A stretch of DNA of 64,000 nucleotides from an uncultured delta proteobacterium (GCA_963776085.1 CAVZMS010000124.1:2488-66487); one strand, 5' to 3'. Shown: positions 10,128 to 38,713, numbered from the stretch's first letter. Notes: a model not told the origin generated them from the letters alone. A program made the numbers and translations.

Positions 10128-10206
10128 GTCATGCCGGACTTGATCCGGCATCCAGCTTCATTAGTTATTAAAAATCATTCTGGATTCCGGCTTCCGCCGG
10201 AATGAC
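10128..10206. repeat. pair of inverted 27-28 nt hairpin repeats (GTCATNCCGG-loop-CCGGNATCCAG family)
   Basis: GTCATGCCGGACTTGATCCGGCATCCAG lies at 10128-10155. CTGGATTCCGGCTTCCGCCGGAATGAC lies at 10180-10206 in the opposite orientation. ORF 10168-10380 is a translation artefact (..VIPAEAGIQ..). Confidence 0.85.
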
Positions 10207-10525
10207 GGTAATACTGGGTTCCCCGACTCTGAAGGAAATGACAAGTCGCAAAGTGACAATAGAAATCTTACCTTGCCTGAAATTGAGGGGGTTCACCATC
10301 CCAGATAGTGACACTAAAGGATTATAACCTTCTAAAAACGCATGTATCTTAACTCCATTGCCCGATTCGATTATTTTCATCTAAATCAAATGCGCTTTCG
10401 ACCTTTGACTCTTCTATTTAGTTATGTTAAATAAAATATAAGACATGTGTCTCTGTAAACTTGAATCCTTTATTCGTTAGGTCAATTCATATGATCTCAT
10501 TCCATGCCTGTTAGGAGAAAACTTA

Positions 10526-11240: not shown

Positions 11241-14200
11241 ATGAGATTCATCGCCGACCTGCATATACACTCCCATTTCTCAAGGGCCACCTCACGAGAC
11301 CTTGATCCTGAAAACCTTGCTATATGGGCCCAAAAAAAGGGCCTTACCGTCATAGGCACCGGAGACTTCACCCATCCCGGCTGGGTGGAGGAGTTGCGGG
11401 ACGAACTTGTTGACGCTGAGAACGGGCTTTATCGTTTGAGGCCTGATCTGGAAAAGATGGTTGAAAGAGAGGTCCCGGAATCCTGTAAGAGGCCGGTCAG
11501 ATTTCTGCTTTCAGGCGAGATAAGCTGTATCTACAAGCGCGACGGAAAGACCAGGAAGATACACCACCTGATTCTCATGCCGGATTTTGAATCAGTCATA
11601 AAGCTGAACAAGGCCCTTGAACGAGTGGGCAACATCAGATCCGACGGAAGACCGATCCTGGGCATAGATTCCAGAGAACTACTTGAAATGACCCTCGATG
11701 CAAGCGATAGGGCCTTTTTCATACCGGCCCATATCTGGACCCCTTGGTTCTCCCTCTTCGGATCCAAATCCGGCTTTAATGCCATAGAGGAATGCTTCGC
11801 GGACCTTACCCCCCATATTCACGCCCTTGAGACAGGGCTGTCCTCCGACCCGCCCATGAATCGCCTGCTCTCGGCCCTTGACGACTATCTGCTGGTCTCC
11901 AATTCAGACGCCCACTCCCCTTCAAGACTGGGGAGAGAGGCGAATATCTTGGACACGGAACTGGACTATGAGCAGATACTTAAGGCCATGATCAGTAAAG
12001 ACGGTTTTAAGGGGACCATCGAGTTCTATCCTGAGGAAGGAAATATCACCTGGACGGGCATCGTAAATGCCAAGTGAGGCTCCACCCGGAAGATACCAGG
12101 AGGCATAAAGGCGTCTGTCCCTCATGCGGAAAGGCCATCACCGTTGGGGTCCTCCACAGGGTTACGGAACTGTCCGACCGCGACAGCCCGAAGATCTCAA
12201 AGGACTTTTACAGCCTCATCCCCCTGTCCGAGATCCTGTCCGAGACCCTTTGTTGCGGGGCCGCGACTAAAAAGGCGAACTCCGCCTATGAAGATCTGCT
12301 TGCAGCCCTTGGTCCAGAACTGGCTATCCTTATGGAGATCCCATTAAAGGATATCGAGGATGCCGGCGGCATGTTACTGGCCACGGCCATTGAAAGGATG
12401 CGACAGGGCAAGGTTATTAGGGAAGCGGGGTATGACGGTGAATACGGGGTAATTCGTCTGTTCCACGAAGGGGACATAGCACAGATCTCCGGGCAAAAGA
12501 CCCTTTTTACAATCCCGAATGATGAGATCGCCGATAAGAAAAGTCCCACGACGACTAAAGGCCTGAAAAAGGATATATATGCCGATCCTATAGGCCGGGG
12601 AAAGGCCTCCTTTTCAGACCCGATCCTGCCTATCCTTAATCCGGAACAAAAAGATGCGGTTATGCATTTAGGAAGTCATCTTTTGATCGTGGCCGGGCCC
12701 GGCACAGGAAAGACCATGACCCTGACCCACCATATCGTTCATATTATACGCTCAAACATTGCCGAACCGGGGCAGGTGCTCGCCCTGACCTTTACAAATA
12801 AGGCAGCAGGAGAGATGAGGGAAAGGATAGATTCCCTGCTGCCCGAGAATCAATCCGTTGCGGTTCATGTGTCCACCTTTCATGGTTTCTGTCTGGAACT
12901 CCTCAGGAATGAAGCTGAAATAATGGGACTTTCTCCCTCTTTTAATATCTGCTCGGAACAGGACTCGTCAATAATAGCCCATCAGGTCATCTTGGATTAC
13001 GGCAAGGGCAAACGTCTGGCAGGGCAATTATTAAGACAGCTCCCCCGAATAAAAAGGTCCTCCGTCATAGATGAAGATACCGACAGGCAGCATCAAGACC
13101 TTTTCCCCATCTTTCAGAAATACCAGGAAAGGCTCAGTGACTTGGGCATGCTGGACCTGGATGACCTGGAGGTTGAGACCTTGAGGATGTTTAAAGAACA
13201 TCCTGAGGTATGCAGTAAATACGCAAGGCGTTTTCCGTATATCTTTGTGGATGAATACCAGGACACCAACCCGATCCAGTCGGCCATTTTAAAGGAGATC
13301 GTAAAGCAAGGCATAACGGAGATCTGCGCCATAGGGGACCCTGATCAGGCCATTTACGGATTTCGAGGGGCTGATGTCGGAAATTTCCATAACTTTTCAA
13401 AGGATTTTCCAGGGGCAAAAAAGATTTCCTTGTTGAAAAACTATCGCTCAACCGAGGTTATTTTAAAAGGGTCCTCAACGCTTATGGACAAGGAAAGGCC
13501 CCTTGAAGGCATCTCCGGAAAGGGGGAGCCTATTCATATCGGCACATGCCTAACCCATTCCGAAGAGGCGGAGATGGTCGTAGAACAGATAGAGAAACTG
13601 ATGGGAGGGATTACCCTCTTTTCCCTTGATAGTTCAAGGGTGTCTTCCCATGAAGATGGAGAAGACCTTGGATTTGGAGACATAGCGGTGCTGTACAGGC
13701 TGAATTCCCAGGGAGATGGATTTGAGGAGGCCTTTTTACGGGCGGGACTGCCCTATGTCAGGTCAGGTGAAAAGGCATTGATCAATCAATACCCGGTTAA
13801 TATTATATGGCGATTGTTTCAGACCCTCTCTTATCCTGATAACGACTACTATTTAAAGGCATACATGGACCTCCTTGGAGAAAACGGCCTTGCCGGAGAT
13901 AAGATATTAAGAGGATGCGCGCTTGAAGGCAGTCTTGAAGAGATTATCGATCATGCCTTATCATTGCATGAATTTGATCTCTCTTCCAAAGAATCGGCGG
14001 ATGCGGTCCGCCGCCTTAAGGCCATAGCGGAAAATATCGATGGAGATATAGGATCCCTTCTGGATAAACTATCCATCGACAGGGGCATTGACCATACAGC
14101 CCTTTCGGGGGACCGCATTGCGCTCATGTCTCTCCATGCGGCCAAGGGCCTCGAATGGCCCGTTGTGTTTATCACGGGATGTGAAGACAGGCTTATCCCA

Positions 14201-14440
14201 TGTTCCCTTTTCGGGGATCATGACGAGGCCGAGGAGAAGAGGCTCTTTTACGTGGGAATGACGAGGGCCCGCCGCAGGCTTATCCTGTCCCATGCCAAAA
14301 GGAGAAAGATCAACGGACGCATCCTTGACATGAAACCCTCACCCTTCCTTGCCCTTATCCCTGACTATCTGTGCGCCCCCCTCGAACGCGCCCCATGGAA
14401 ACGCAAAGGGAAAAAACACAAACAACTGGAGCTTTTTTAA
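11241..14440 (+). CDS. endonuclease Q-like (PHP-fold plus Zn ribbon) fused to a UvrD/PcrA-type superfamily-1 helicase (one frame shift)
   Basis: The N-terminal part 11241-12077 has DLHIHSHFSRATS, GTGDFTHPGW, PAHIWTPWFS and SNSDAHSP..LGRE. Adding one A to the AAA run at 12041-12043 gives EEGKYHLDGHRKC..CPSCG...GVLHRV, as in archaeal EndoQ. The helicase motifs are AGPGTGKT, TFTNKAAGEMRER, VDEYQDTN, GDPDQAIYGFRGA, KNYRST, LHAAKGLEWPVVF and YVGMTRAR. Confidence 0.85.
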
Positions 14441-15766: not shown

Positions 15767-15792
15767 CAACCCGGAGATCTTCTGAAATCCAA

Positions 15793-16016
15793 TCGAAGGG
15801 CCTGCCCTATTTTTTCCCTTGTAAAATAATTCGCGTTATAGTTATCATGCCTCCGCACAATCTCAGAAATTGTCAACTTTCCAACCCAATCTTTACAGAT
15901 TAATTATTAACCTGTAACCAGCCTATGTATTTCTAACCCCCCGTGTTACAGAAACGGGAGATTCAAAAGTTCATTTAAAAATTTATTAACCGGTTTAATT
16001 GGGGCATAAATTTAAG
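15793..16016 (+). repeat. copy A of a duplicated promoter/leader element (64-nt identical core at 15900-15963)
   Basis: It aligns with 18151-18372. A putative -35 TTGTAA (15819-15824) is followed by 17 nt and then TTATCA. The core is TTAATTATTAACCTGTAACCAGCCTATGTATTTCTAACCCCCCGTGTTACAGAAACGGGAGATT. The element ends 15 nt before the ATG at 16031. Confidence 0.85.
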
Positions 16017-16030
16017 GTAGAGATGAATCA

Positions 16031-16906
16031 ATGAATTTCGTTGCCATCGACGTAGAAACAGCGAATGCCGATATGGCATCGATTTGCCAGATCGGTCTTG
16101 TGAAGTGCGAAAATGGCGTCCTGTCGGATGAATGGAAAACCTATGTCGATCCAGAGGATTACTTCGATGGCATCAATGTATCTATCCACGGAATCGACGA
16201 GTCTGTTGTTAAGGGTGCCCCAACGTTCCCAGAATTAGCCGATACGCTTCGTTCATATCTCGAAGGTACAGTAGTTGTCTGCCACACGCACTTTGATCGG
16301 GTGGCGATACATCAGGCAGCTCAGCGGTATGGCGTTACCGCGCCAGAATGTACTTGGCTTGATTCGGCGCGGGTCGCGCGTCGGGCGTGGAAGGAGTGTG
16401 CATGGAAAGGGTATGGGCTTTATAACGTATGCAAGATCCTCGGATATGACTTCAAGCACCATGATGCCTTGGAAGACGCAAAGGCAGCGGCGCATATCCT
16501 TCTTGCCGCAACCAATGAAAGTGGGCTTGATCTAGATGGCTGGCTCAAGAGAGTACGACAGCCAATTGACCCCACAGCGAGCAGTTCTGGTTCCGCCATA
16601 AGGCGTGAAGGAAACCCAGAAGGCGCTCTTTACGGTGAGGTTCTTGTTTTTACCGGCGCCCTTGAAATACCACGGCGAGAAGCAGCCGATTTGGCGGCTG
16701 CCATTGGTTGCCAAGTGGCATCAGGGGTCACAAAGAAAACAACGATGTTGGTAGTGGGTGATCAGGACATTAAGAAACTCGCAGGTCACGAGAAGAGTTC
16801 TAAGCACAGAAAGGCGGAGGAACTCATTGAGAAAGGCATCCCAATTCGAATTCTCAAAGAAAGCGATTTCAAAGAGCTTGCGAGATTCTCGAACGAGATC
16901 GCCTAA
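16031..16906 (+). CDS. DnaQ-like DEDDh 3'-5' exonuclease fused to a C-terminal BRCT domain
   Basis: Intact 291-aa ORF with AIDVETAN (Exo I), CHTHFD (Exo II), HHDALEDAKAAA (Exo III) and a BRCT-like C-terminus (VFTGAL...TMLVVGDQ...KHRKAEEL..GIPI). Confidence 0.8.
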   Translation: MNFVAIDVETANADMASICQIGLVKCENGVLSDEWKTYVDPEDYFDGINVSIHGIDESVVKGAPTFPELADTLRSYLEGTVVVCHTHFDRVAIHQAAQRYGVTAPECTWLDSARVARRAWKECAWKGYGLYNVCKILGYDFKHHDALEDAKAAAHILLAATNESGLDLDGWLKRVRQPIDPTASSSGSAIRREGNPEGALYGEVLVFTGALEIPRREAADLAAAIGCQVASGVTKKTTMLVVGDQDIKKLAGHEKSSKHRKAEELIEKGIPIRILKESDFKELARFSNEIA

Positions 16907-16931
16907 TACCTGATAGGGCGTTTAGACAGAT

Positions 16932-17483
16932 ATGCCGCTGAATCATACATCGAAATATGCAGAGTTGACTGACGAGCAGTTTGCCCTTATTGGCAGACTT
17001 GTAATTGAATGGTCGAATATTGAGTTTCTGTTAGGAGTTTTGCTCAGTCGACTCCTTTTAACGCCGGAGTTTCTTGGGCGCGTTTACAGCGATGAAATGA
17101 GTGCTAGCAGAATACAAGATGCTCTAAAAAAGGCTTTGGATATCCACAGACATCGTTACGGCTCTAAGCTCGTCCCCCCTGAAACACTTGATGAGATATT
17201 GCGACTAAACGCTGATATTGAGAAGTTCCGCGGATTGCGAAACAGGTTCTCCCACTTCTGTTGGTCTCGCTCAAATGATAACGAGATATTTGGTTCTGGG
17301 CTGTCCGGGTTCGTACCTCCAAGCAAACGTCTTGATAAAGATTCAATGGAGGTAAGTGTGTCTGAGTTAAAAGAGTTTTACCGGAATGCGTACCAACTTG
17401 TTGAACACCTATCTGGTGTAATCCAACGGCTTCTTGAAACAGATGAAGATGAAAGTCTAACAAGAGCTTTGAGAAGGACGTGA
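16932..17483 (+). CDS. hypothetical protein with an Rx4H (HEPN-like) motif
   Basis: Intact 183-aa ORF, 25 nt after the exonuclease gene. The motif LRNRFSHFCW (R-N-x3-H) sits in a predicted helical protein. The HEPN assignment is inference. Confidence 0.5.
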   Translation: MPLNHTSKYAELTDEQFALIGRLVIEWSNIEFLLGVLLSRLLLTPEFLGRVYSDEMSASRIQDALKKALDIHRHRYGSKLVPPETLDEILRLNADIEKFRGLRNRFSHFCWSRSNDNEIFGSGLSGFVPPSKRLDKDSMEVSVSELKEFYRNAYQLVEHLSGVIQRLLETDEDESLTRALRRT

Positions 17484-17559
17484 GTTATTCTGTTGTTCCA
17501 CTCACGCCCCTCAAGCTGGGCATTGCTTTATAAAAAGTCAAACATTCAAAGGTTATGAA

Positions 17560-17895
17560 ATGAACGATAAGGTTAAAAAAAATAAGAGTGATAAGAGCAA
17601 TTTTGATAGTGAATATGATTATTGGTTTAAACGAAAGAAAAACACTAGTAATATCAATAAACCTAGGATGGAATGTTTAGAGGAAATTCTTAGATATCAT
17701 AAGGATAAAATACCATATGACATAATATCAAATAAGAGATCTATGTGGAAAAACATATGCAAAAGAAATTCTAATAGAGGAAATTTTTGTTACACAATAT
17801 TCATCTCAGTATGTAATGCATATCTTATAAGAGAAACAAATTTTTTAAGACCGAATGATGAAGCAATTAGTAAATGGTGGGCAAAAAGAAAATAA
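17560..17895 (+). CDS. hypothetical Lys-rich protein (very AT-rich orphan ORF)
   Basis: 111-aa ORF with no recognisable motif. Its composition is clearly different from the preceding two genes. Confidence 0.45.
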   Translation: MNDKVKKNKSDKSNFDSEYDYWFKRKKNTSNINKPRMECLEEILRYHKDKIPYDIISNKRSMWKNICKRNSNRGNFCYTIFISVCNAYLIRETNFLRPNDEAISKWWAKRK

Positions 17896-18150
17896 TAGTT
17901 CCTTATAAGTAGAAAAATATCTTTCATGCCAAGCAATATAATCTCCTGGTTAACGAGGGCTGGCTTTTTCGCTGGTCGCTTCAAAAGCTAGCCTGTTACT
18001 CGGCTCGTCAATGTATCTCCAACCTCTCCTCCCACTCTACATCTTCGCCCTTTTTATGCCTTTCGACCTACTCAAGGTCCCGAGCAAAGTCGAGGGACTC
18101 AAGGTCTCTGACCGAATAGCGAATAGAAAGTCGGAATAGTACTGAGCCTG

Positions 18151-18372
18151 TCGAAGGGATGGCCCTCTTTTTCCCTTGTAAAATAATTTACATATATCTA
18201 TTATACTTCCCGATATCCGCATCAATTCATAACTATTCAACCCCACCTTTACAGCTTAATTATTAACCTGTAACCAGCCTATGTATTTCTAACCCCCCGT
18301 GTTACAGAAACGGGAGATTTAAATATTCATTTCAAATTTTATTAACTTATTAAATTAGCTGATAAATTTAAG
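18151..18372 (+). repeat. copy B of the duplicated promoter/leader element (64-nt identical core at 18256-18319)
   Basis: It has the same element order as copy A. The -35 TTGTAA (18176-18181) is followed by 17 nt and then the -10 TATTAT (18199-18204). The flanks are diverged while the core is identical. Confidence 0.85.
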
Positions 18373-18491: not shown

Positions 18492-18815
18492 ATGAACCTC
18501 ACAAAGGAAATAGAAAAAGATAGACAAGAATTACTCGAAATTCTTTCTCGTGACGATAGTAATATGGGTAAGAAGACAAGCGATCTACAAAATTTAGGAC
18601 GCCGGGTTGGGGCAAGTACAATTAACCTCATCAAAGGTTATGGGGAAGCTTCTGTTCCTGAACTTGCACAGAGCATTCATCACGCATTGCAAACCAAATC
18701 TACTGTGGCTGCACTACAGATATCTCGAAAATACCTCATTGTTTCAATAATACTTGCAGTTATCGCCCTTTTAAGCATGGTAGCCACTTGGATAGGTATG
18801 CTATGCACAAAATAA
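18492..18815 (+). CDS. hypothetical protein with a C-terminal transmembrane anchor
   Basis: 107-aa ORF with ggagg 7 nt upstream. The C-terminus is YLIVSIILAVIALLSMVATWIGML. Confidence 0.5.
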   Translation: MNLTKEIEKDRQELLEILSRDDSNMGKKTSDLQNLGRRVGASTINLIKGYGEASVPELAQSIHHALQTKSTVAALQISRKYLIVSIILAVIALLSMVATWIGMLCTK

Positions 18816-18833
18816 CTATGAAATGTATTTTTC

Positions 18834-18922
18834 GTCTAACTTGTCACTTCAGCAGACATCCATGGCGGTGCGGACGTGCAATCTTAAAATTTTGTAATGC
18901 CCCGTCTGCTTTTGAGTTTGAC
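18834..18922 (+). other. attC-like imperfect hairpin (weak candidate)
   Basis: The layout is GTCTAAC (R''-like, 18834-18840) ... AGCAGAC / GTCTGCT (perfect 7-bp inner stem) ... GTTTGAC (18916-18922). The spacer lengths of 10 versus 5 nt are atypical. Confidence 0.35.
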
Positions 18923-18991
18923 TTTTTACGCCCAGAGCGAGACCATCATAGATAGCATAATCGAAGGGAGTCAACTAAACGGAGGAACGAC

Positions 18992-20083
18992 ATGAAAATA
19001 GAGGCTCTTCAATACCACCAGAAGGACAAGGATATATTTGTTTTTTCGATGGACCCACACTACATGAAACAGTTAGTCAAAATAAGTGATGTGTCGACAG
19101 GTGATAAGAACTTCCAAAGGCCATTCGATCCCAAGAGAGTAGCAGAAATTAAGACCTATGTTCTTGGAAGGGATAAACTCTATAAAAAGGGGAAAGACGT
19201 CTACGCCAAAGGTTTCATTCCTAATGCAATAGTCGTGAATTTGCCAAATTCTTACAAGGTTGAAAATCAAGGGAGTAAGGCATATATCCATTTCCCTGAT
19301 GTAAAAAATATTAAAAGGTACAAAGAAACAATAGAGATCATCGACGGACAACATCGGTTACTGGCATTCGATGATGAATGCAAGACACTTATGGGTGCGC
19401 AGCAATATGAGATGTGTTTTGTGGCCCTACTCAATCTTTCTGATAGCGAGAAAAAAGAAATATTCATGGTCCTCAATGAAAGACAAAAGACGGTAGATAA
19501 GAACATTCTTCTTCGTCACAAGAAGTTGCTCAAGCTCCTCCTGGACGATGAAGAAACCAGATATGATGTTATTACTAGATTGAATTCTGAAGTTGATTCA
19601 CCTTTCTACGGCAAAATCATTATGGCAGGCGAGAAGAAAACCTATGGTTTGAAAGCTGTCCAAATCGACAGTGTATTAAATTCCTCGAAGGCATTAGAAA
19701 AACTCATTGATTCAAAGGATCAGATAAGTGAGAAATCCTACAAGATATTAAAAAATTATTTCCTTTCTTGGCAGGCTAATTTTCCCATTGTGTGGTTCAA
19801 GGCCAATAATACCCTGACAAAAATGGCTGGCTTTCGCTTTATGTCCTATCTTTTTCCATACGTGTACGACATTTTGAAATCCGGAAAAAATTTTCAGATA
19901 AAAACATTTTCCGATATTATCTCTAAAATAAAATCGGATGATTTCAACGAAGAGTTCGATATCAAAAAAGCGGGCAAGTTTTCCCACTTTCAAGAACAAC
20001 GCGGGATAATCAGATATGCAACACAACTAGGCAAAGAGCTTAGAGAACATTTCCAAGAAAGAGATGATGATATCATTGTTTAG
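18992..20083 (+). CDS. DGQHR domain protein (DndB-like, ParB/Srx-fold superfamily)
   Basis: Intact 363-aa ORF with a literal DGQHR motif (IEIIDGQHRLLAF), followed by EKKEIFMVLNERQKTV, as in the DndB/DGQHR families. Confidence 0.8.
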   Translation: MKIEALQYHQKDKDIFVFSMDPHYMKQLVKISDVSTGDKNFQRPFDPKRVAEIKTYVLGRDKLYKKGKDVYAKGFIPNAIVVNLPNSYKVENQGSKAYIHFPDVKNIKRYKETIEIIDGQHRLLAFDDECKTLMGAQQYEMCFVALLNLSDSEKKEIFMVLNERQKTVDKNILLRHKKLLKLLLDDEETRYDVITRLNSEVDSPFYGKIIMAGEKKTYGLKAVQIDSVLNSSKALEKLIDSKDQISEKSYKILKNYFLSWQANFPIVWFKANNTLTKMAGFRFMSYLFPYVYDILKSGKNFQIKTFSDIISKIKSDDFNEEFDIKKAGKFSHFQEQRGIIRYATQLGKELREHFQERDDDIIV

Positions 20084-20842
20084 GTGCATATGGAAAAATT
20101 GTCAACCAAGCTCATCGCGAACCTCGATGTAACTACTATACGGTTCCAGACCGAAATCCTTAATCGCCTCAAGTTATTCGATTTTTCTAAATCGGCCATT
20201 CTTCACTATTCCGAATCGCAGGAAAAGGAATTCCAAGGCTATTCCTTTGAACAACTTCAAAGCCGGTTTAAGTTGGTAGGCTTTAAAGAAGGCAGTAAAC
20301 TTAAAAGTATTAAATATAAGGACATGGTCACTGTTGGGAACTCCTACATAAAAGGCGAACTTTCTGACTTGATTTTCGTCCTAAATATGGCAACCTTTGA
20401 GCACTGGCTTTTGTGGGTACTCAAAACCCTCATTCTATCTAATCCACGGGAATTTTACCCTAAGAGCAATAAACAGGTTGAGGTGACTTATCTCAAGAAA
20501 TTTGATGAAATGCCCATGCTCTGGGAAGAGCTTGTTTCTGATTATCTCAGTACCTTGCCATATCAAGGAATGAAGATTCTTCTGAAGACGTTCTTGAGTT
20601 GCTTCAGGCTCAAGGAAAGTGATTTCACCAAGAATTTATTGGGGATAATTAACGAAAACAGCCAATGCAGGAACGTCATTATGCATAACCAGAAGAAGGT
20701 AAATGCCGCATATACCAAGAAATGCGGGAGATTTGGAAAGTTTACTGAAGGGGAACATATAGTGGTTACTGAGGAATTACTATTTGACCAAGCAGATAAC
20801 CTTTTACGATTCATGCAAGATTTTCGTAATAATCATGCATGA
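20084..20842 (+). CDS. hypothetical protein with a C-terminal Rx4H (HEPN-like) motif, coupled to the DGQHR gene
   Basis: 252-aa ORF that starts (GTG 20084 or ATG 20090) directly after the DGQHR stop. The motif is QCRNVIMHNQKKV. The HEPN assignment is inference. Confidence 0.55.
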   Translation: MHMEKLSTKLIANLDVTTIRFQTEILNRLKLFDFSKSAILHYSESQEKEFQGYSFEQLQSRFKLVGFKEGSKLKSIKYKDMVTVGNSYIKGELSDLIFVLNMATFEHWLLWVLKTLILSNPREFYPKSNKQVEVTYLKKFDEMPMLWEELVSDYLSTLPYQGMKILLKTFLSCFRLKESDFTKNLLGIINENSQCRNVIMHNQKKVNAAYTKKCGRFGKFTEGEHIVVTEELLFDQADNLLRFMQDFRNNHA

Positions 20843-20896
20843 CAAGAAACCCTATAACAAGTTCTAGCCATGCCGGCATGGAGAAGGGAGACAAGG

Positions 20897-21679
20897 ATGG
20901 GTTTACTGCACGAAATCCAAACATCTGTAGTACAGGAGGGCGCGCATCTCGGCTCAGTTCTCCTCAAGCTACAATTGCTGGCTGCGAGACTTGGGAGTGA
21001 ACCCTTGGAGGAGTGGATCAAATACGAGTCCGAGGGTTATCCACGCGATGCTGAGATTCCGTCCTATCGTGTAGTCGCGGTTTCCTATAGAGGCACGTTC
21101 TCCGGTCCATTCGGCTCCGGAATTAGGGACGCCCAGATTCCCGGCTACTTAGTCGAGAAGATTGCCGGTAAGCAGTGGACAAAGCACGAGATCCGGGACG
21201 GCATTGCTGCGATCGACGAGCTCGTAAGGAGCTCTGCTGAAGGAGATGGAACACTCGGAATCGATGCGTCAAATCTAATCCTGCTACTGCAAGGGAAGGT
21301 CTACGCAGACTATGCGTGCAACGATGTTCAGGGCACCATTTCTAGGGCGGCCTTGACTGAACTTCAGTACGCAGTTCGCAGCCGTATCCTCGAACTTACG
21401 CTTGAACTCGAGAGATCTATTCCGGCAGCTACAGAGATTACCTTTGGTAGTCCCGCGTCATCCGAGAAGTTCAATTCCGAGAAGGTCAATCAGATATCCC
21501 AGCAGATTATCTACGGAAACGTCACGACGATTTCGAGTAGCGGAGCAGGCTCTCAGATAAACGTTTCCCTCGGTGAGCGAGACGATAAAGCGTTCATCGA
21601 ATACCTCGTCAAAGCTGGAATTCCCAAAGGTGATGCTTCAGAACTAGCTAAAATCGTTGCGGCTGAAGAGCCAGAGTAG
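20897..21679 (+). CDS. AbiTii-like abortive-infection family protein
   Basis: The N-terminus MGLLHEIQTSVVQEGAHLGSVLLKLQLLAARLGSEPLEEWIKYESEGYPRDAEIPSYR matches the AbiTii N-terminal pattern as I remember it. The gene is visibly GC-richer than its neighbours. A further 47 codons continue in the +1 frame to 21821. Confidence 0.6.
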   Translation: MGLLHEIQTSVVQEGAHLGSVLLKLQLLAARLGSEPLEEWIKYESEGYPRDAEIPSYRVVAVSYRGTFSGPFGSGIRDAQIPGYLVEKIAGKQWTKHEIRDGIAAIDELVRSSAEGDGTLGIDASNLILLLQGKVYADYACNDVQGTISRAALTELQYAVRSRILELTLELERSIPAATEITFGSPASSEKFNSEKVNQISQQIIYGNVTTISSSGAGSQINVSLGERDDKAFIEYLVKAGIPKGDASELAKIVAAEEPE

Positions 21680-23583: not shown

Positions 23584-23610
23584 CTGGATTCCGGCTTCCG
23601 CCGGAATGAC
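23584..23610. repeat. hairpin repeat identical to 10180-10206
   Basis: CTGGATTCCGGCTTCCGCCGGAATGAC is the same 27-mer as at 10180-10206. A REP-like stretch follows to about 23700. ORF 23522-23713 is an artefact. Confidence 0.85.
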
Positions 23611-23794
23611 GATTCGCGGCAAGACTTCGGCGAACCCTTCGGTATTGAGTTCAGGGCCGAAATGCTCAGTCGAGTCGCCGCAGGCTATCAAGAATTCAGG
23701 AGCTTGGAGTTAGAATAACAACGAGGGGGAATATTTTTAAAGACCCCCACCCGACCTCCCCCTAAAAGGAGGAGGAATTAATGGCGGTAATATA

Positions 23795-25084
23795 ATGATC
23801 AGCCGGTACACACGCCCTGAAATGGGGAGGATATGGGAGCTTAAGAATCGGTACGCCAAATGGCTTCAGGTTGAGATACTGGCGTGTGAAGCCATGGCAA
23901 AAGAGGGCCTTATTCCAAAGAAGGCATTGGTTAATATAAGAAAGGCCAGATTCTCGGAAGAACGCATCCTTGAGATAGAAGAGGTGACCAGGCATGATGT
24001 GATCGCCTTTTTAGAAAACGTGGCCGAATCTGTCGGGCCTGACTCCCGTTTCATCCATATGGGGCTGACCTCTTCGGACATCCTGGACACCGGCTTCGCG
24101 CTCCAGCTGAAAGAGGCCATGGAATTGATTATCAACGACGTCCATGAATTCATGGATACAATCAAGGCGAAGGCCAAGGAGTATAAATTTACCGCCATGA
24201 TAGGCCGGTCCCACGGAATCCATGCGGAACCCATCACCTTCGGTCTCAAGCTTGCCGTATGGTATTCTGAGATGGGAAGGAATCTAAAGAGATTGGAGCA
24301 GGCCCTGGAGACGATCAGCTACGGCAAACTATCCGGGGCGGTTGGTACCTTTGCCAATACATCCCCCAAGATTGAGGCCTATGTCTGCGAGAAACTGGGG
24401 CTGAAGCCCGCTGAAGCATCTACCCAGATAATACAGCGCGACCGGCACGCGCAATATTTTTCCACCCTGGCAGTAGTGGCCGGGACACTGGAAAAGATAG
24501 CCGTTGAGATACGGCACCTCCAGAGGACAGAGGTGCTTGAGGCTGAAGAGGCCTTTGAAAAGGGGCAAAAGGGATCTTCCGCCATGCCTCATAAGAAGAA
24601 TCCGATCGGGTCCGAAAACATTGCCGGCCTTGCACGTCTTGTGCGATCCAATTCCCTGGCTGCCATGGAAAATATGGCATTATGGCATGAGAGAGATATC
24701 AGTCACTCCTCTGTGGAAAGAGTAATTGGGCCTGACAGCACCATAATAATCGATTTCATGCTCCATCGACTTAATAGAATCATAAAAACCCTGGTGGTAT
24801 ATCCCAGGAGAATGGAAGAGAACCTTAATCTGTTAAAGGGTTTAATATTTTCACAGCAGGTGCTTATAAAACTCGCAGGTATGGGATTGAGTCGTCAGAC
24901 TGCGTATGAGATAGTGCAAAGAAATGCCCTGAAGGTCTGGGAAACAGGAAGTGATTTCAAGACACTCCTGCTGGAAGACCCGGACATAAGGGGATATCTT
25001 ACAAAGGAATCCATAGAAGAGATATTTAATCTGGACTATCATTTCAAGTATGTGGAAGAGATATTTGACAGAGTTTTTACATAA
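23795..25084 (+). CDS. purB: adenylosuccinate lyase
   Basis: Intact 429-aa ORF with MISRYTRPEM, GLTSSDILDT and the GSSAMPHKKNP signature. Confidence 0.95.
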   Translation: MISRYTRPEMGRIWELKNRYAKWLQVEILACEAMAKEGLIPKKALVNIRKARFSEERILEIEEVTRHDVIAFLENVAESVGPDSRFIHMGLTSSDILDTGFALQLKEAMELIINDVHEFMDTIKAKAKEYKFTAMIGRSHGIHAEPITFGLKLAVWYSEMGRNLKRLEQALETISYGKLSGAVGTFANTSPKIEAYVCEKLGLKPAEASTQIIQRDRHAQYFSTLAVVAGTLEKIAVEIRHLQRTEVLEAEEAFEKGQKGSSAMPHKKNPIGSENIAGLARLVRSNSLAAMENMALWHERDISHSSVERVIGPDSTIIIDFMLHRLNRIIKTLVVYPRRMEENLNLLKGLIFSQQVLIKLAGMGLSRQTAYEIVQRNALKVWETGSDFKTLLLEDPDIRGYLTKESIEEIFNLDYHFKYVEEIFDRVFT

Positions 25085-25088
25085 TGAG

Positions 25089-26650
25089 ATGCGGCTGAAT
25101 CGCAGGATTGGGAAATTAAAGAATCTTATTCAGATGATAAGGAGATTTAAGAATTCTCCTTTGTCCGGGATTATTCGGAGATATCCTCTATCTGTCCTGC
25201 TGTTTATCCTTATCCCGCTATTATCCATAGGGCCCGCCCATGCCGATAGCGTAAAACAGTCAAATCAATCAAGATCTTCCCACATTCTTATTGGAATGGC
25301 ACAGCGAGCCCGATTATGTGATCGCGGTAGATAAATCCCAGCAAAAGGTTATGGTATATCGTAGCGATAATCTTCTTGCCCCTGAAAAGGTATACACATG
25401 CTCCACCGGCGAAAACGACGGACCAAAAACCAAGAAGAATGACCGAAAGACCCCGGAGGGAATCTATTTTTTCACCAAGTCCTATATAAGCGAAACCCTT
25501 TCGCCTATTTACGGTTCAAGGGCCCTTCCCATTAATTATCCCAACTTAATCGATCAAATGGAGGGAAAAGAGGGTTACGGCATATGGTTTCACGGGACAA
25601 ATAAGCCCATCATACCCAATGACACTAACGGATGTATCAGCTTGGAAAACAAAGATATTGAAGAGCTGGCAACCTTTATCAAGGTATTTGAGACACCGAT
25701 AATTATTAGTTCCCGAATAGAGATGGCTTCACCCGCCGACATTGAAAAAGAAAAGGAGGAGATGACGGAGATAATTGAGAACTGGAGGACCGCCTGGCAA
25801 GATAGGGATATTGAGAGATACATGTCTTTATATAACCGTAGTTTTTCTTCCGGAGGAAAAAACTGGCGTGAGTGGAAGGAAAATAAATCCCAATTAGCAA
25901 ATAAATACGCTCAGATCACTGTGGAGGTAGATGATCTACGGCTCTTGTCTGCCGATGGTGTCGTCCTTGCCACGTTTAGACAGACTTATAGCACCCCGAA
26001 ATTTAAGACCTGGGGCACAAAAAGGCTTTATCTGACAAAAAACAGCGATGAATGGAAGATCCTCGTGGAAACCTTTGATCTTGATAAGATAGAAAAGATA
26101 ACAATGGCTTCCGCTGATCTTAAAAAGGTTGAAAAGCCTGCCGCCGAGCTTGCCAAGGCAGAAATGCCTGCCGCTACTACTGATATCAACAAGGTGGAAA
26201 TGCCTGCCGCCGAGCTTGCCAAAGTAGAAATGCCTGTTACTGATATCAGCAAGAGCAGAAATGCCTGCCACAGAGAAACAGGAGGCTTACAGTTTACAGG
26301 AGGTAGAAGATTTTATTTATTCGTGGAAAGATGCATGGGAAAAAGAAGAATTAGATAAGTACATTTTGTGTTATGATGCGAGCTTTAAATCCCGCGGGAT
26401 GGATCTGGCTGCATGGGAAGCACACAGGAAGTCCCTGAATGAAAAATACAGTTCCTTAACAATAGAGATCAATGATCTGAAGATAAAGCGCATTTCAGAT
26501 ACCAGCGCCAAGGTCACTTTCACACAGAACTACACGGCCGACAATTACAAAGACCTCGGCAATAAAGAACTGGTTCTTATTAAAACCGATCAAGGTTGGA
26601 AGATTACAAAAGAGGAATGGACTCCGATCAAAAAGAGACGGCACCCATAA
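25089..26650 (+). CDS. L,D-transpeptidase (YkuD domain) with two NTF2/SnoaL-like domains and a repeat linker (two frame shifts)
   Basis: The signal peptide lies in 25089-25334. The YkuD core lies in 25291-26358 (IWFHGTN...TNGCISL). It is followed by WRTAWQDRDIERYMSLY, (V/A)EMPAAELAK repeats (about 26128-26275), and a second domain in 26261-26650 (WKDAWEKEELDKYILCY). Confidence 0.8.
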
Positions 26651-33839: not shown

Positions 33840-33916
<77 letters not shown>

Positions 33917-38079: not shown

Positions 38080-38713
38080 ATGAAAAAATTAATGACCGTT
38101 CTATTAATCTTTGGATTTGTATTCTCATCACTCTTGTTCACAACGTCATGCGCAAAAAAACAGGTCGTACAGCCAGGCCCCTGCCGTTGACTTGGAGGCG
38201 GAGGCCAGGGCAAAGGCCGCTGCGGAGGCGGAGGCTAAGGCTAAGGCAGAGGCAGCAGCCGCCAAGGCAAAAGCAGAGGCAGAGGCCAAGGCAAGGGCAG
38301 AGGCAGCGGCGGCCGCCAAGGCAAAGGCAGAGGCGGAAGCAAGGGCAAAAGCCGAGCAACTTAGACAGGAAATCAGCGCCTTTGAATCCGAGCATATCTA
38401 CTTTGATTACGACAAGTCTGAATTGAAGCCTGAGGCAAGGGACATCCTGACAAAAAAGGCTGCTTTTCTCCAAGCCAATCCCGACTATAACGTGAAGATC
38501 GAGGGGAACTGTGATGAAAGGGGAACAAACGAGTATAACCTTGCGCTTGGTGAGAGAAGGGCCACTGCGGCTTCCAAATTCATAAACGCCCTTGGCGTGT
38601 CGGAAAACAGGATATCAACCGTGAGTTATGGGGAAGAAAAGCCCGTTGATACGGGACATAACGAAAATGCCTGGTCAAAAAACAGGCGTGATGAATTTAA
38701 ATTGATAAAATAA
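38080..38713 (+). CDS. pal: peptidoglycan-associated lipoprotein Pal (OmpA-like) with an Ala/Glu/Lys-rich linker (one frame shift)
   Basis: The ATG at 38080 follows aggagg. The lipobox is LLFTTSC. The shift lies between 38154 and 38196, a stretch containing A7 and C4 runs. The OmpA-like end is NCDERGTNEYNLALGERRA (within 38111-38713). Confidence 0.88.

Follow-up and report, generated by a model that had tools for sequence, protein, structure and literature searches.

A duplicated promoter module in a delta proteobacterial island ends in a conserved hairpin that recurs beside rolling-circle initiator genes

A 64,000-nt stretch of DNA from an uncultured delta proteobacterium (GCA_963776085.1 CAVZMS010000124.1:2488-66487; hereafter the window, meaning the whole stretch analysed) carries, in a defence-island-like region, two copies of an element of about 225 bp in front of two unrelated sets of genes. 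What is this element, and why is one part of it so much better conserved than the rest? A previous reading, made from the sequence alone, described a duplicated promoter and leader and proposed that its core could be an operator, a switch-like leader RNA or a recombination or insertion site.

The end-to-end alignment of copy A (15793-16016) with copy B (18151-18372) on which that reading was based was borne out, and the pair is the longest direct repeat of the window (family D1 of the repeat search). The core of 64 nt is indeed identical at 64/64 positions (15900-15963 = 18256-18319) and is immediately preceded by CTTTACAG, with a single mismatch at 15899. The flanks have drifted as described, with 77/107 identities (72 %) upstream and 40/53 (75.5 %) downstream. 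At a background identity of about 74 %, the chance of a 64-nt identical run is about 4e-9, and the unevenness of the conservation is therefore real. No third copy of the 64-mer was found in the 64 kb, even with up to three mismatches (shuffled sequences, 0/100). The parts of the two copies are the following.

15793-16016, plus strand: copy A of the module (alignment, repeat search, alignment of relatives).
15819-15848, plus strand: promoter P1 of copy A, TTGTAA-18-TATCAT (consensus scan; boxes kept in relatives).
15893-15917 (copy B, 18249-18273), no strand assigned: near-palindrome TTACAGATTAATTATTAACCTGTAA, specific to one sub-family.
15925-15936 (copy B, 18281-18292), no strand assigned: conserved flank of the hairpin, ATGTATTTCTAA, consensus RTGTATTTYTAR (column counts over 41 copies).
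15937-15960, no strand assigned: hairpin A, CCCCCCGT-GTTACAGAA-ACGGGAG (folding, motif scans, comparison with M13).
18151-18372, plus strand: copy B of the module, oriented like copy A and 2356 nt downstream of it.
18176-18204, plus strand: promoter P1 of copy B, TTGTAA-17-TATTAT (consensus scan; boxes kept in relatives).
18293-18316, no strand assigned: hairpin B, identical to hairpin A.

Copy A starts with a terminator-like GGG..CCC hairpin and a T-run, followed by P1, a leader of about 75 nt, the near-palindrome, ATGTATTTCTAA, the hairpin and a tail. The sigma70-like promoter proposed for copy B stands, but for copy A the scan picks TTGTAA-18-TATCAT rather than the TTATCA box that had been placed at a spacing of 17 nt. 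The -35 box TTG(T/C)AA and the -10 box TAT(T/C)NT, 17-18 nt apart, are kept in 13 related copies. Also present as described are the 25-bp near-palindrome (TTACAGATTAAT/ATTAACCTGTAA, 12-nt arms, 92 % complementary), the heptamers CTGTAAC (15911-15917) and GTTACAG (15945-15951) with 27 nt between them, and the CCCGT/ACGGG stem with the loop GTTACAGAA.

We then looked for the module elsewhere. Its left ~170 nt (~15808-15958) recur, with 75-95 % identity, in 12 further metagenomic copies, which form a sub-family with the window copies A and B (L030, L034, L035 twice, L036, L037, L039, L041, L045, L050 twice, L058/L060 and L059); copy B and L050 are 95 % identical over 176 nt. In the sub-family alignment, the promoter boxes are followed by ~75 nt of moderate conservation and then by the strongly conserved ATTATTAACCTGTAACC.GCCTATGTATTTCTAACCCCCCGTGTTACAGAAACGGG. 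The core is the best-conserved part of these 14 copies from different contigs, which implies that the window copies are maintained. The similarity is one-sided, ending directly after the hairpin with unrelated sequence and genes beyond, and a 55-nt AT-rich tail 3' of the hairpin is common only to copies A, B, L050 and L035. Copies of a second type (L001-type) likewise show a one-sided similarity, of 250-310 nt, that ends at the hairpin. Same-orientation tandem copies lie 0.7-2.4 kb apart in the window, L024, L035, L046 and L050. In L035 and L050, the two copies are 920 and 712 nt apart with a two-gene cassette between them; in L024 and L046, the covariance model finds a diverged second copy about 2 kb off in the same orientation, and L035 has a variant copy.

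Judged by these alignments, each window copy is a portable promoter module, 14 copies of which stand before unrelated ORFs (open reading frames). This is the pattern of mobile promoters and promoter reuse, in which very similar promoter regions precede unrelated genes within and between genomes (PMC3575422). That concept, however, describes a pattern without a mechanism, whereas the window module ends in a hairpin shared with replicons and its copies bracket cassettes. A plain segmental duplication, or gene conversion between intergenic regions, of no functional consequence is barely credible as an explanation: the window does hold only two copies and gene conversion could produce a 64-nt identical tract, but the core is also the best-conserved part of 12 further copies on other contigs, about 50 loci carry its right half and the genes downstream are unrelated. 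The view that selection acts on the element, and that this is not a recent private duplication, is thus upheld by its recurrence before variable, unrelated cargo at many other loci.

The same alignments bear on the near-palindrome, which had been singled out as a possible helix-turn-helix repressor operator and as part of a switch, with CUGUAAC and the CCCGU/ACGGG stem as competitors for GUUACAG. The palindrome occurs in both window copies, its outer arms can pair in 10/14 sub-family copies (three through U.G) and CTGTAAC is nearly invariant in the sub-family. As a conserved unit, however, it did not survive the comparison: the left arm varies (TTACAG, TTATAG, TCATTG, TTAACC) beside a fixed right arm, and a degenerate palindrome pattern had 0 matches in 185,579 species genomes (GTDB, one per species). 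The competing stem fared no better, since GTAAC is found upstream in 11/14 sub-family copies versus 1/36 other copies, and the hairpin is perfect in the 35/36 that lack this loop complement; being specific to the sub-family, the complement cannot provide a general mechanism. With no adjacent regulator gene and no covariation either, we consider an operator or a switch very unlikely. What is conserved as a unit is the core's right half, made up of ATGTATTTCTAA and the hairpin.

This right half, the last 33 nt of the module (RTGTATTTYTAR-CCCCCGTGTTAC-NNNN-ACGGGGG), is far more widespread than the module itself. About 50 copies were found, in Desulfobacterota, Nitrospirota, Nitrospinota, Zetaproteobacteria and inovirus-like contigs, and outside the sub-family only this 33-nt motif is common, behind other promoters. 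The exact 19-mer of the hairpin, CCCGTGTTACAGAAACGGG, occurs in 4 GTDB genome contigs (two Nitrospirota metagenome-assembled genomes (MAGs), a Deltaproteobacteria MAG), in 3 viral contigs and in 37 metagenome contigs; nearly all these matches extend, with RTGTATTTYTAR-S-CCCCC before and, in about half, G or GG after. Since the public collections were scanned with exact patterns, the sample, which includes about 10 natural variants, is biased to perfect hairpins. When viral contigs were scanned with the loop-only 15-mer, the matches other than the three known contigs were coding-like and lacked the flank, which indicates that the flank is a real part of the motif; it is also conserved in the copies fetched via the Rep protein described below.

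The flank at 15925-15936 and 18281-18292 reads as a mini-ORF, ATG TAT TTC TAA, without a Shine-Dalgarno sequence. A leader peptide (MYF*) was rejected, as codon 4 is a stop in some copies and CAA, CAG or GAA in others, the start varies (ATG, GTG, CTG, TTG, AAG, TAA), later changes are non-synonymous and there is no coding conservation. The motif itself was also rejected as a sigma70 or extracytoplasmic function (ECF) promoter, because by inspection no consistent -35 box lies 16-18 nt from TATTTY. In a phage ORF of >349 aa with an RNase-H-like N-terminus (L085, 12117-12139, minus strand), 26/28 nt of the 5' part of the motif recur in the frame of the mini-ORF (..GYFYTPVLQKKG..), a match too good for chance in which the 3' stem is lost.

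Across the ~50 copies, the hairpin has a GC stem of 5-7 bp and a loop of 9-11 nt. The variants keep the stem and GTTAC, and the next four loop bases vary (AGAA, CGAA, CCAG, TGAC, TACA, TAAG, TGAA). With a covariance model and column counts built on 41 copies, no compensatory change was found in any base pair of the stem CCCCCG/CGGGGG in alignments across four phyla (0 pairs with an informative double change in the core stem), and such an invariant stem fits sequence-specific recognition. The outer stem pairs are paired in 56-66 % of copies, barely above shuffles, and unpaired in a third of copies. In line with the impression that this is no known riboswitch or ribozyme, Rfam 15 had no match at gathering score in the whole window (within 15780-16040, nothing better than chance matches at E = 5). 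A full-text literature search for the sequence returned nothing relevant, and BLAST of the core against phage and plasmid records gave only chance matches. A riboswitch was rejected on account of the diverse cargo, which points to no single pathway or ligand, and of the missing covariation and Rfam match.

A different light was shed on the motif by the genes beside it. A rep operon of the gpII/Rep_trans kind has the site 30-340 nt ahead of it at 12 distinct loci, and at all 12 the site is on the strand opposite to rep, so that the rep strand reads CCCCCG-TTTCTGTAACA-CGGGGG. L005, L006 and L007 are Zot-encoding, inovirus-like viral contigs of 4.7-5.4 kb, whose 188-aa protein beside the motif matches PF02486 Rep_trans with 38.6 bits (cut-off 29.6) and phrog_453 ('replication initiation protein'). 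At L002, L025, L047 and L054, a divergent operon across the motif has genes for a 357-aa protein and a large serine recombinase, besides a small ORF. Members of the 357-aa family match PF05144 ('Replication-associated protein G2P N-terminal') above the cut-off, and the family also matches plasmid genes annotated as replication initiation factor; it has at least 682 members, in Nitrospinota, Nitrospirae, Burkholderiales, Nitrosomonas, Mariprofundus and Desulfuromonas versatilis. When loci were fetched by the protein alone, the motif was again found ahead of the rep operon in five of them: L064, L065, L066, L067 (with the same sequence in L068/L069) and L071 (with the same sequence in L072). The 5' 25 nt of the window motif are almost identical to the rep-linked copy of D. 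versatilis (ATGTATTTCTGAGCCCCCGTGTTAC in D. versatilis versus ATGTATTTCTAACCCCCCGTGTTAC in the window). The link to rep genes points to a DNA site of mobile elements, and it is the last of the three options first proposed, a recombination or insertion site, that comes closest; the operator and the switch fall away.

On the rep strand, since the variants keep GTTAC and the stem, conservation starts at GTAAC and runs 3' for ~27 nt, continuing through stem and flank (...ACGGGGGG-TTAGAAATACAT). In the alignments, this one-sided conservation looks as in an initiator recognition region. The corresponding strand in the window is the minus strand, where hairpin A reads CTCCCGT-TTCTGTAAC-ACGGGGGG, and by analogy a putative nick would fall on it between window positions 15947 and 15950. 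In L043 (153-213), a 12-nt tandem duplication, C(T/C)CCCGTGTTAC, lies within the motif, and on the rep strand its unit starts exactly at GTAAC; anecdotally, this is what slipped termination would leave.

The filamentous phages offer the nearest known counterpart. In M13, the hairpin AGTCCAC-GTTCTTTAATA-GTGGACT shares its strand with gene II, which starts ~225 nt further on, and the loop of the hairpin is nicked by pII at TT/AA (PMC11765958). The rep-strand loop TTTCTGTAACA has the same length as GTTCTTTAATA and is identical to it at 8/11 positions, against 3/11 in the other orientation (composition-preserving permutation, p = 0.009 for one comparison). With the Ff plus-strand origin (f1, M13, fd) the motif shares a GC-closed hairpin with an 11-nt loop, at the rep-linked loci a place ahead of the initiator gene and on that gene's strand, conservation 3' of the putative nick and associated proteins of the gpII/Rep_trans kind. 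It differs in that neither its stem nor its flank is related in sequence, most copies (both window copies among them) stand without a nearby rep gene before cargo in chromosomal islands, a promoter reads across it and its nicking is only putative.

The arrangement around the hairpin also recalls the pT181 family, in whose origins the nick hairpin, ICRII, has beside it an inverted repeat bound by Rep, ICRIII (PMC5775427). In both cases, a nick-type hairpin common to the family is followed by a lineage-specific inverted repeat, which in the window would be the 25-bp near-palindrome ~20 nt away on the 3' side of the rep strand, and one related initiator of the motif loci is a Rep_trans protein. 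The origin lies inside the rep gene in pT181, however, and the likeness drawn here is one of layout; moreover, the near-palindrome is found in one sub-family only and its left arm is poorly conserved. The near-palindrome may be a Rep-binding inverted repeat analogous to ICRIII, a second promoter (TTTACA-17-TAACCA) or an RNA hairpin.

Hence, we tentatively favour, at slightly less than an even chance, the reading that each window copy is a promoter module that carries a rolling-circle-origin-type hairpin without its rep gene. Its first part would be the sigma70 promoter TTGTAA-17/18-TATYAT reading rightwards into the cargo, and its end a 33-nt DNA site, ATGTATTTCTAA plus the hairpin CCCCCCGT-GTTACAGAA-ACGGG, the same site that stands directly upstream of the initiator gene in inovirus-like phages and in elements at tRNA-Asn genes that encode a serine recombinase and Rep. 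The hairpin would serve a plus-strand (double-strand) origin as the hairpin that is recognised and nicked, and would be used in the window on the minus strand (CCCG-TTTCTGTAACA-CGGG) with the flank and the near-palindrome 3' of the nick, a layout like that of f1 domain A and of ICRII/ICRIII in the pT181 family. Since no Rep is encoded in the 64 kb, the window copies would be orphans that act only with Rep supplied in trans. A nick on the minus strand would start synthesis leftwards, and a round that begins at copy B and ends at copy A would free the 2.36-kb segment at 15.95-18.30 kb as a circle, in which P1 of copy B would read through the rebuilt hairpin into the exonuclease cassette. In favour of an origin-type site are its constant position and strand beside two different rep families, phage genomes included, and also the invariant stem, the one-sided conservation, the likeness to the M13 loop, the sharp end of the similarity and the tandem copies around cassettes.

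Several observations weigh against this reading, and some of them speak for a hairpin that works as RNA. A tblastn search found no Rep homologue in the 64-kb window, and copies without a rep gene outnumber rep-linked ones by ~3:1. Among the loci of the Rep family, L061, L062, L063 and L070 have no detectable copy of the motif, although L062 has no sequence upstream of rep. The likeness to the M13 loop is only moderately significant once two orientations are allowed (p ~0.01-0.02). A co-oriented ORF starts 20-350 nt downstream of the motif in at least 26 loci without rep, and a strong sigma70-like promoter stands on the same strand no more than 130 nt ahead of the motif in 21/50 copies, compared with 11 % of random windows (~4-fold). 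TTGACA-17-TAAAAT lies 18-19 nt before GTAT in L001, L004, L024, L029, L040 and L048, and L067 has TTGACA-17-TATAAT. Lastly, the wobble pairs are contradictory about the folding strand: in three independent variants an inner G-C becomes G.U on the gene-sense strand, but 11/41 copies have C.A on the gene-sense strand and U.G on the other, and as the variants point to both strands, wobble does not decide between them.

These observations allow the main rival explanation, possible but rather doubtful, in which the cargo mRNA begins with ATGUAUUUCUAA and the hairpin, transcribed from P1 or, at other loci, from another promoter. The leader hairpin would then be acted on by a protein, or by RNase E with a stem-loop for protection, so as to set the stability, the processing or the read-through of the message. 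Where a rep gene is linked, the hairpin would either lead the divergent transcript of the cargo or form a counter-transcript to the leader of rep. The distance from the -10 box to GTAT falls into two classes, of 11-12 nt and 18-19 nt, and a T6-T8 run follows the hairpin of L005 and L006, as in a small terminated RNA. GUAUU would fit the RN/WUU preference of RNase E and also ACAGU/AUUUG, the classical site in RNA I.

The genes downstream are heterogeneous and mostly of an accessory or defence type. Their products include an exonuclease, an ORC/Cdc6-like protein, PLD, an MFS transporter, adenylate cyclase, a low-molecular-weight phosphatase, an OLD-like ATPase, AAA_15/21 with DUF4435, DUF6236, NHL repeats, T5orf172, TPR, ThsB-TIR, cupin, HigB, a SAM methyltransferase and a P-loop ATPase. 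JUMPStart/ops is a leader element of horizontally acquired operons that recruits RfaH, and as a short conserved 5'-leader element of many unrelated accessory operons it would be an analogue of such an RNA leader, and of that explanation only; the sequences are dissimilar and no NusG paralogue came to light.

Against an RNA leader, no compensatory pair turns up in any alignment, one and the same stem sequence is kept in all phyla, a third of copies leave the outer stem unpaired and Rfam has no match. Since the start codon is anywhere from 22 to 350 nt away, the ribosome-binding site could not be occluded directly. The phage contigs, L064 and L071 have no co-oriented gene to regulate, and the likeness to the M13 nick loop would be left unexplained. 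An origin-type hairpin and an RNA leader are not exclusive, as P1 is well supported under either.

The bracketing of short cassettes by direct repeats raises a further alternative, an attC-type or dif-type site for an integron-like or Xer-like tyrosine recombinase, which we regard as highly improbable. Like integron attC arrays, the copies are structured direct repeats that separate short accessory, toxin-antitoxin and defence cassettes, and the similarity stops at a defined point of the site. CTGTAAC...GTTACAG loosely resembles RYYYAAC...GTTRRRY, but both heptamers miss the consensus twice, they are 27 nt apart (a 41-nt span versus 57-141 nt) and there is no L'/L'' or R/L box pairing. In the window sub-family, GTATTTCTAAC / CCCCCGT / GTTACAGAAAC can be read as an 11-7-11 arrangement with 8/11 arm symmetry, but this symmetry is lost in other sub-families (e.g., GTATTTTCAGG in L001). 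Pfam scans revealed no integrase, IntI included, among 16 island ORFs, and unlike attC the element has its own promoter, lies 5' of the genes and is associated with Rep and a serine recombinase. The ends of the module, TCGAAGGG... and ...ACGGGAG, do not form inverted repeats and no duplication was seen at its flanks, and a miniature inverted-repeat transposable element or insertion sequence (IS) end was therefore rejected. The sequence-only reading had recognised no attC, dif or IS end, and we agree.

The rep-linked copies at tRNA-Asn genes (L025, L064, L066, L067) belong to small integrative elements (L002, L025, L047, L054, L064-L072; e.g., L066 1928-5553 and L067 2133-5618). Each combines a gpII-like Rep (~357 aa) and a large serine recombinase with two further ORFs, one small and one of ~60 aa, and has a divergent cargo slot, which in L067 holds a Pycsar-like pair (PycTM and a cyclase-like protein, the latter with a faint Pfam match) and in L054 HigB. 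This family of elements is widespread and apparently undescribed. As the large serine recombinase is used at tRNA-Asn, the att site of these elements is the tRNA end, not the motif. Copies of the L001 type lie ~200 nt downstream of a tRNA-Asn gene (L029, 7-82), and in L024, L040, L048, L001 and L004 a partial tRNA-Asn 3' end (..GAGTCC....GGGAGCCA) lies ~200-250 nt upstream of the motif. Their setting looks like the att end of islands serially integrated at tRNA-Asn.

In the window, copy A is preceded by genes for a GajB-like UvrD helicase and then a DUF4143 ATPase (PADLOC PDC-S01). The genes that follow are those that had been noted; the exonuclease-BRCT gene starts 73 nt after hairpin A and the 107-aa ORF, whose product has a C-terminal hydrophobic helix, 178 nt after hairpin B. 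The genes between and after the copies are the following.

16031-17895, plus strand: cassette between the copies (ORF, Pfam and PADLOC scans).
16031-16906, plus strand: RNase_T/DEDDh exonuclease with a BRCT domain (PADLOC PDC-S48).
16932-17483, plus strand: 183-aa ORF.
17560-17895, plus strand: AT-rich, lysine-rich 111-aa ORF (~30 % G+C, against 45-50 % in the island).
18492-21679, plus strand: module after copy B, with the 107-aa ORF, the DndB/DpdB-like protein, a 252-aa ORF and AbiTii.
18992-20083, plus strand: DndB/DpdB-like protein.
20870-21679, plus strand: AbiTii.

The 111-aa ORF had no Pfam or PADLOC match and was probably acquired separately. Left of the copies (11241-14440), a 278-aa ORF without a Pfam match, whose N-terminus is PHP-like (HIHSHFS), overlaps the start of the GajB-like UvrD helicase by 4 nt, and the two possibly form a two-gene defence system. 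The closest named relatives of PurB (23795-25084) are Deltaproteobacteria/Thermodesulfobacteriota MAGs. Public assemblies have no recorded protein identical to those of the window that were looked up. Relatives with a 91 % identical PurB have no motif copy, but their synteny with the window extends only from 23716 rightwards, so the island cannot be compared with them directly. A perfect 28-nt direct repeat, CTGGATTCCGGCTTCCGCCGGAATGACG, which contains a 7-bp hairpin, occurs at 10180-10207 and 23584-23611 and in none of the 83 fetched loci. It brackets 13.4 kb that hold the whole defence island, and the synteny of the relatives resumes ~100 nt to its right, at 23716. The repeat may be a REP-like element or mark the island boundary as an att-type site.

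Further to the right, tRNA-Met(CAT) (33840-33916) adjoins a region that in relatives encodes a XerC/D-type integrase and then HicAB, and in L041 a similar tRNA-Met is found ~5.8 kb from a motif copy. In-frame tandem repeats with periods of 24-66 nt, GC-rich and of the GCAGAGGC type, lie at 38201-38356 and 26077-26236; they probably encode Ala/Glu/Lys-rich repeat proteins, the latter lying in the C-terminal part of a YkuD-domain protein (25291-26358).

Returning to the orphan hairpins, a bolder proposal, which we think unlikely but worth stating, is that they are working origins for the Rep of a resident or invading rolling-circle element, supplied in trans, which would excise promoter-equipped cassettes or amplify them as circles; as a variant, they could, in front of defence genes, be origin mimics that sense the Rep of an infecting filamentous phage. 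If this were true, it would amount to an integron-like cassette system built on rolling-circle origins instead of attC and IntI. Even as an RNA leader, the motif would be an undescribed, high-information element of the cargo operons of mobile elements in at least four phyla, absent from Rfam. If the hairpin is a target of Rep, the defence and toxin-antitoxin cassettes of Desulfobacterota and Nitrospirota islands would carry their own promoter and rolling-circle origin, which would offer a concrete and testable route for the shuffling of defence-island cassettes among islands, integrative elements and phages. The module may thus stand for a novel means by which gene cassettes are expressed or moved.

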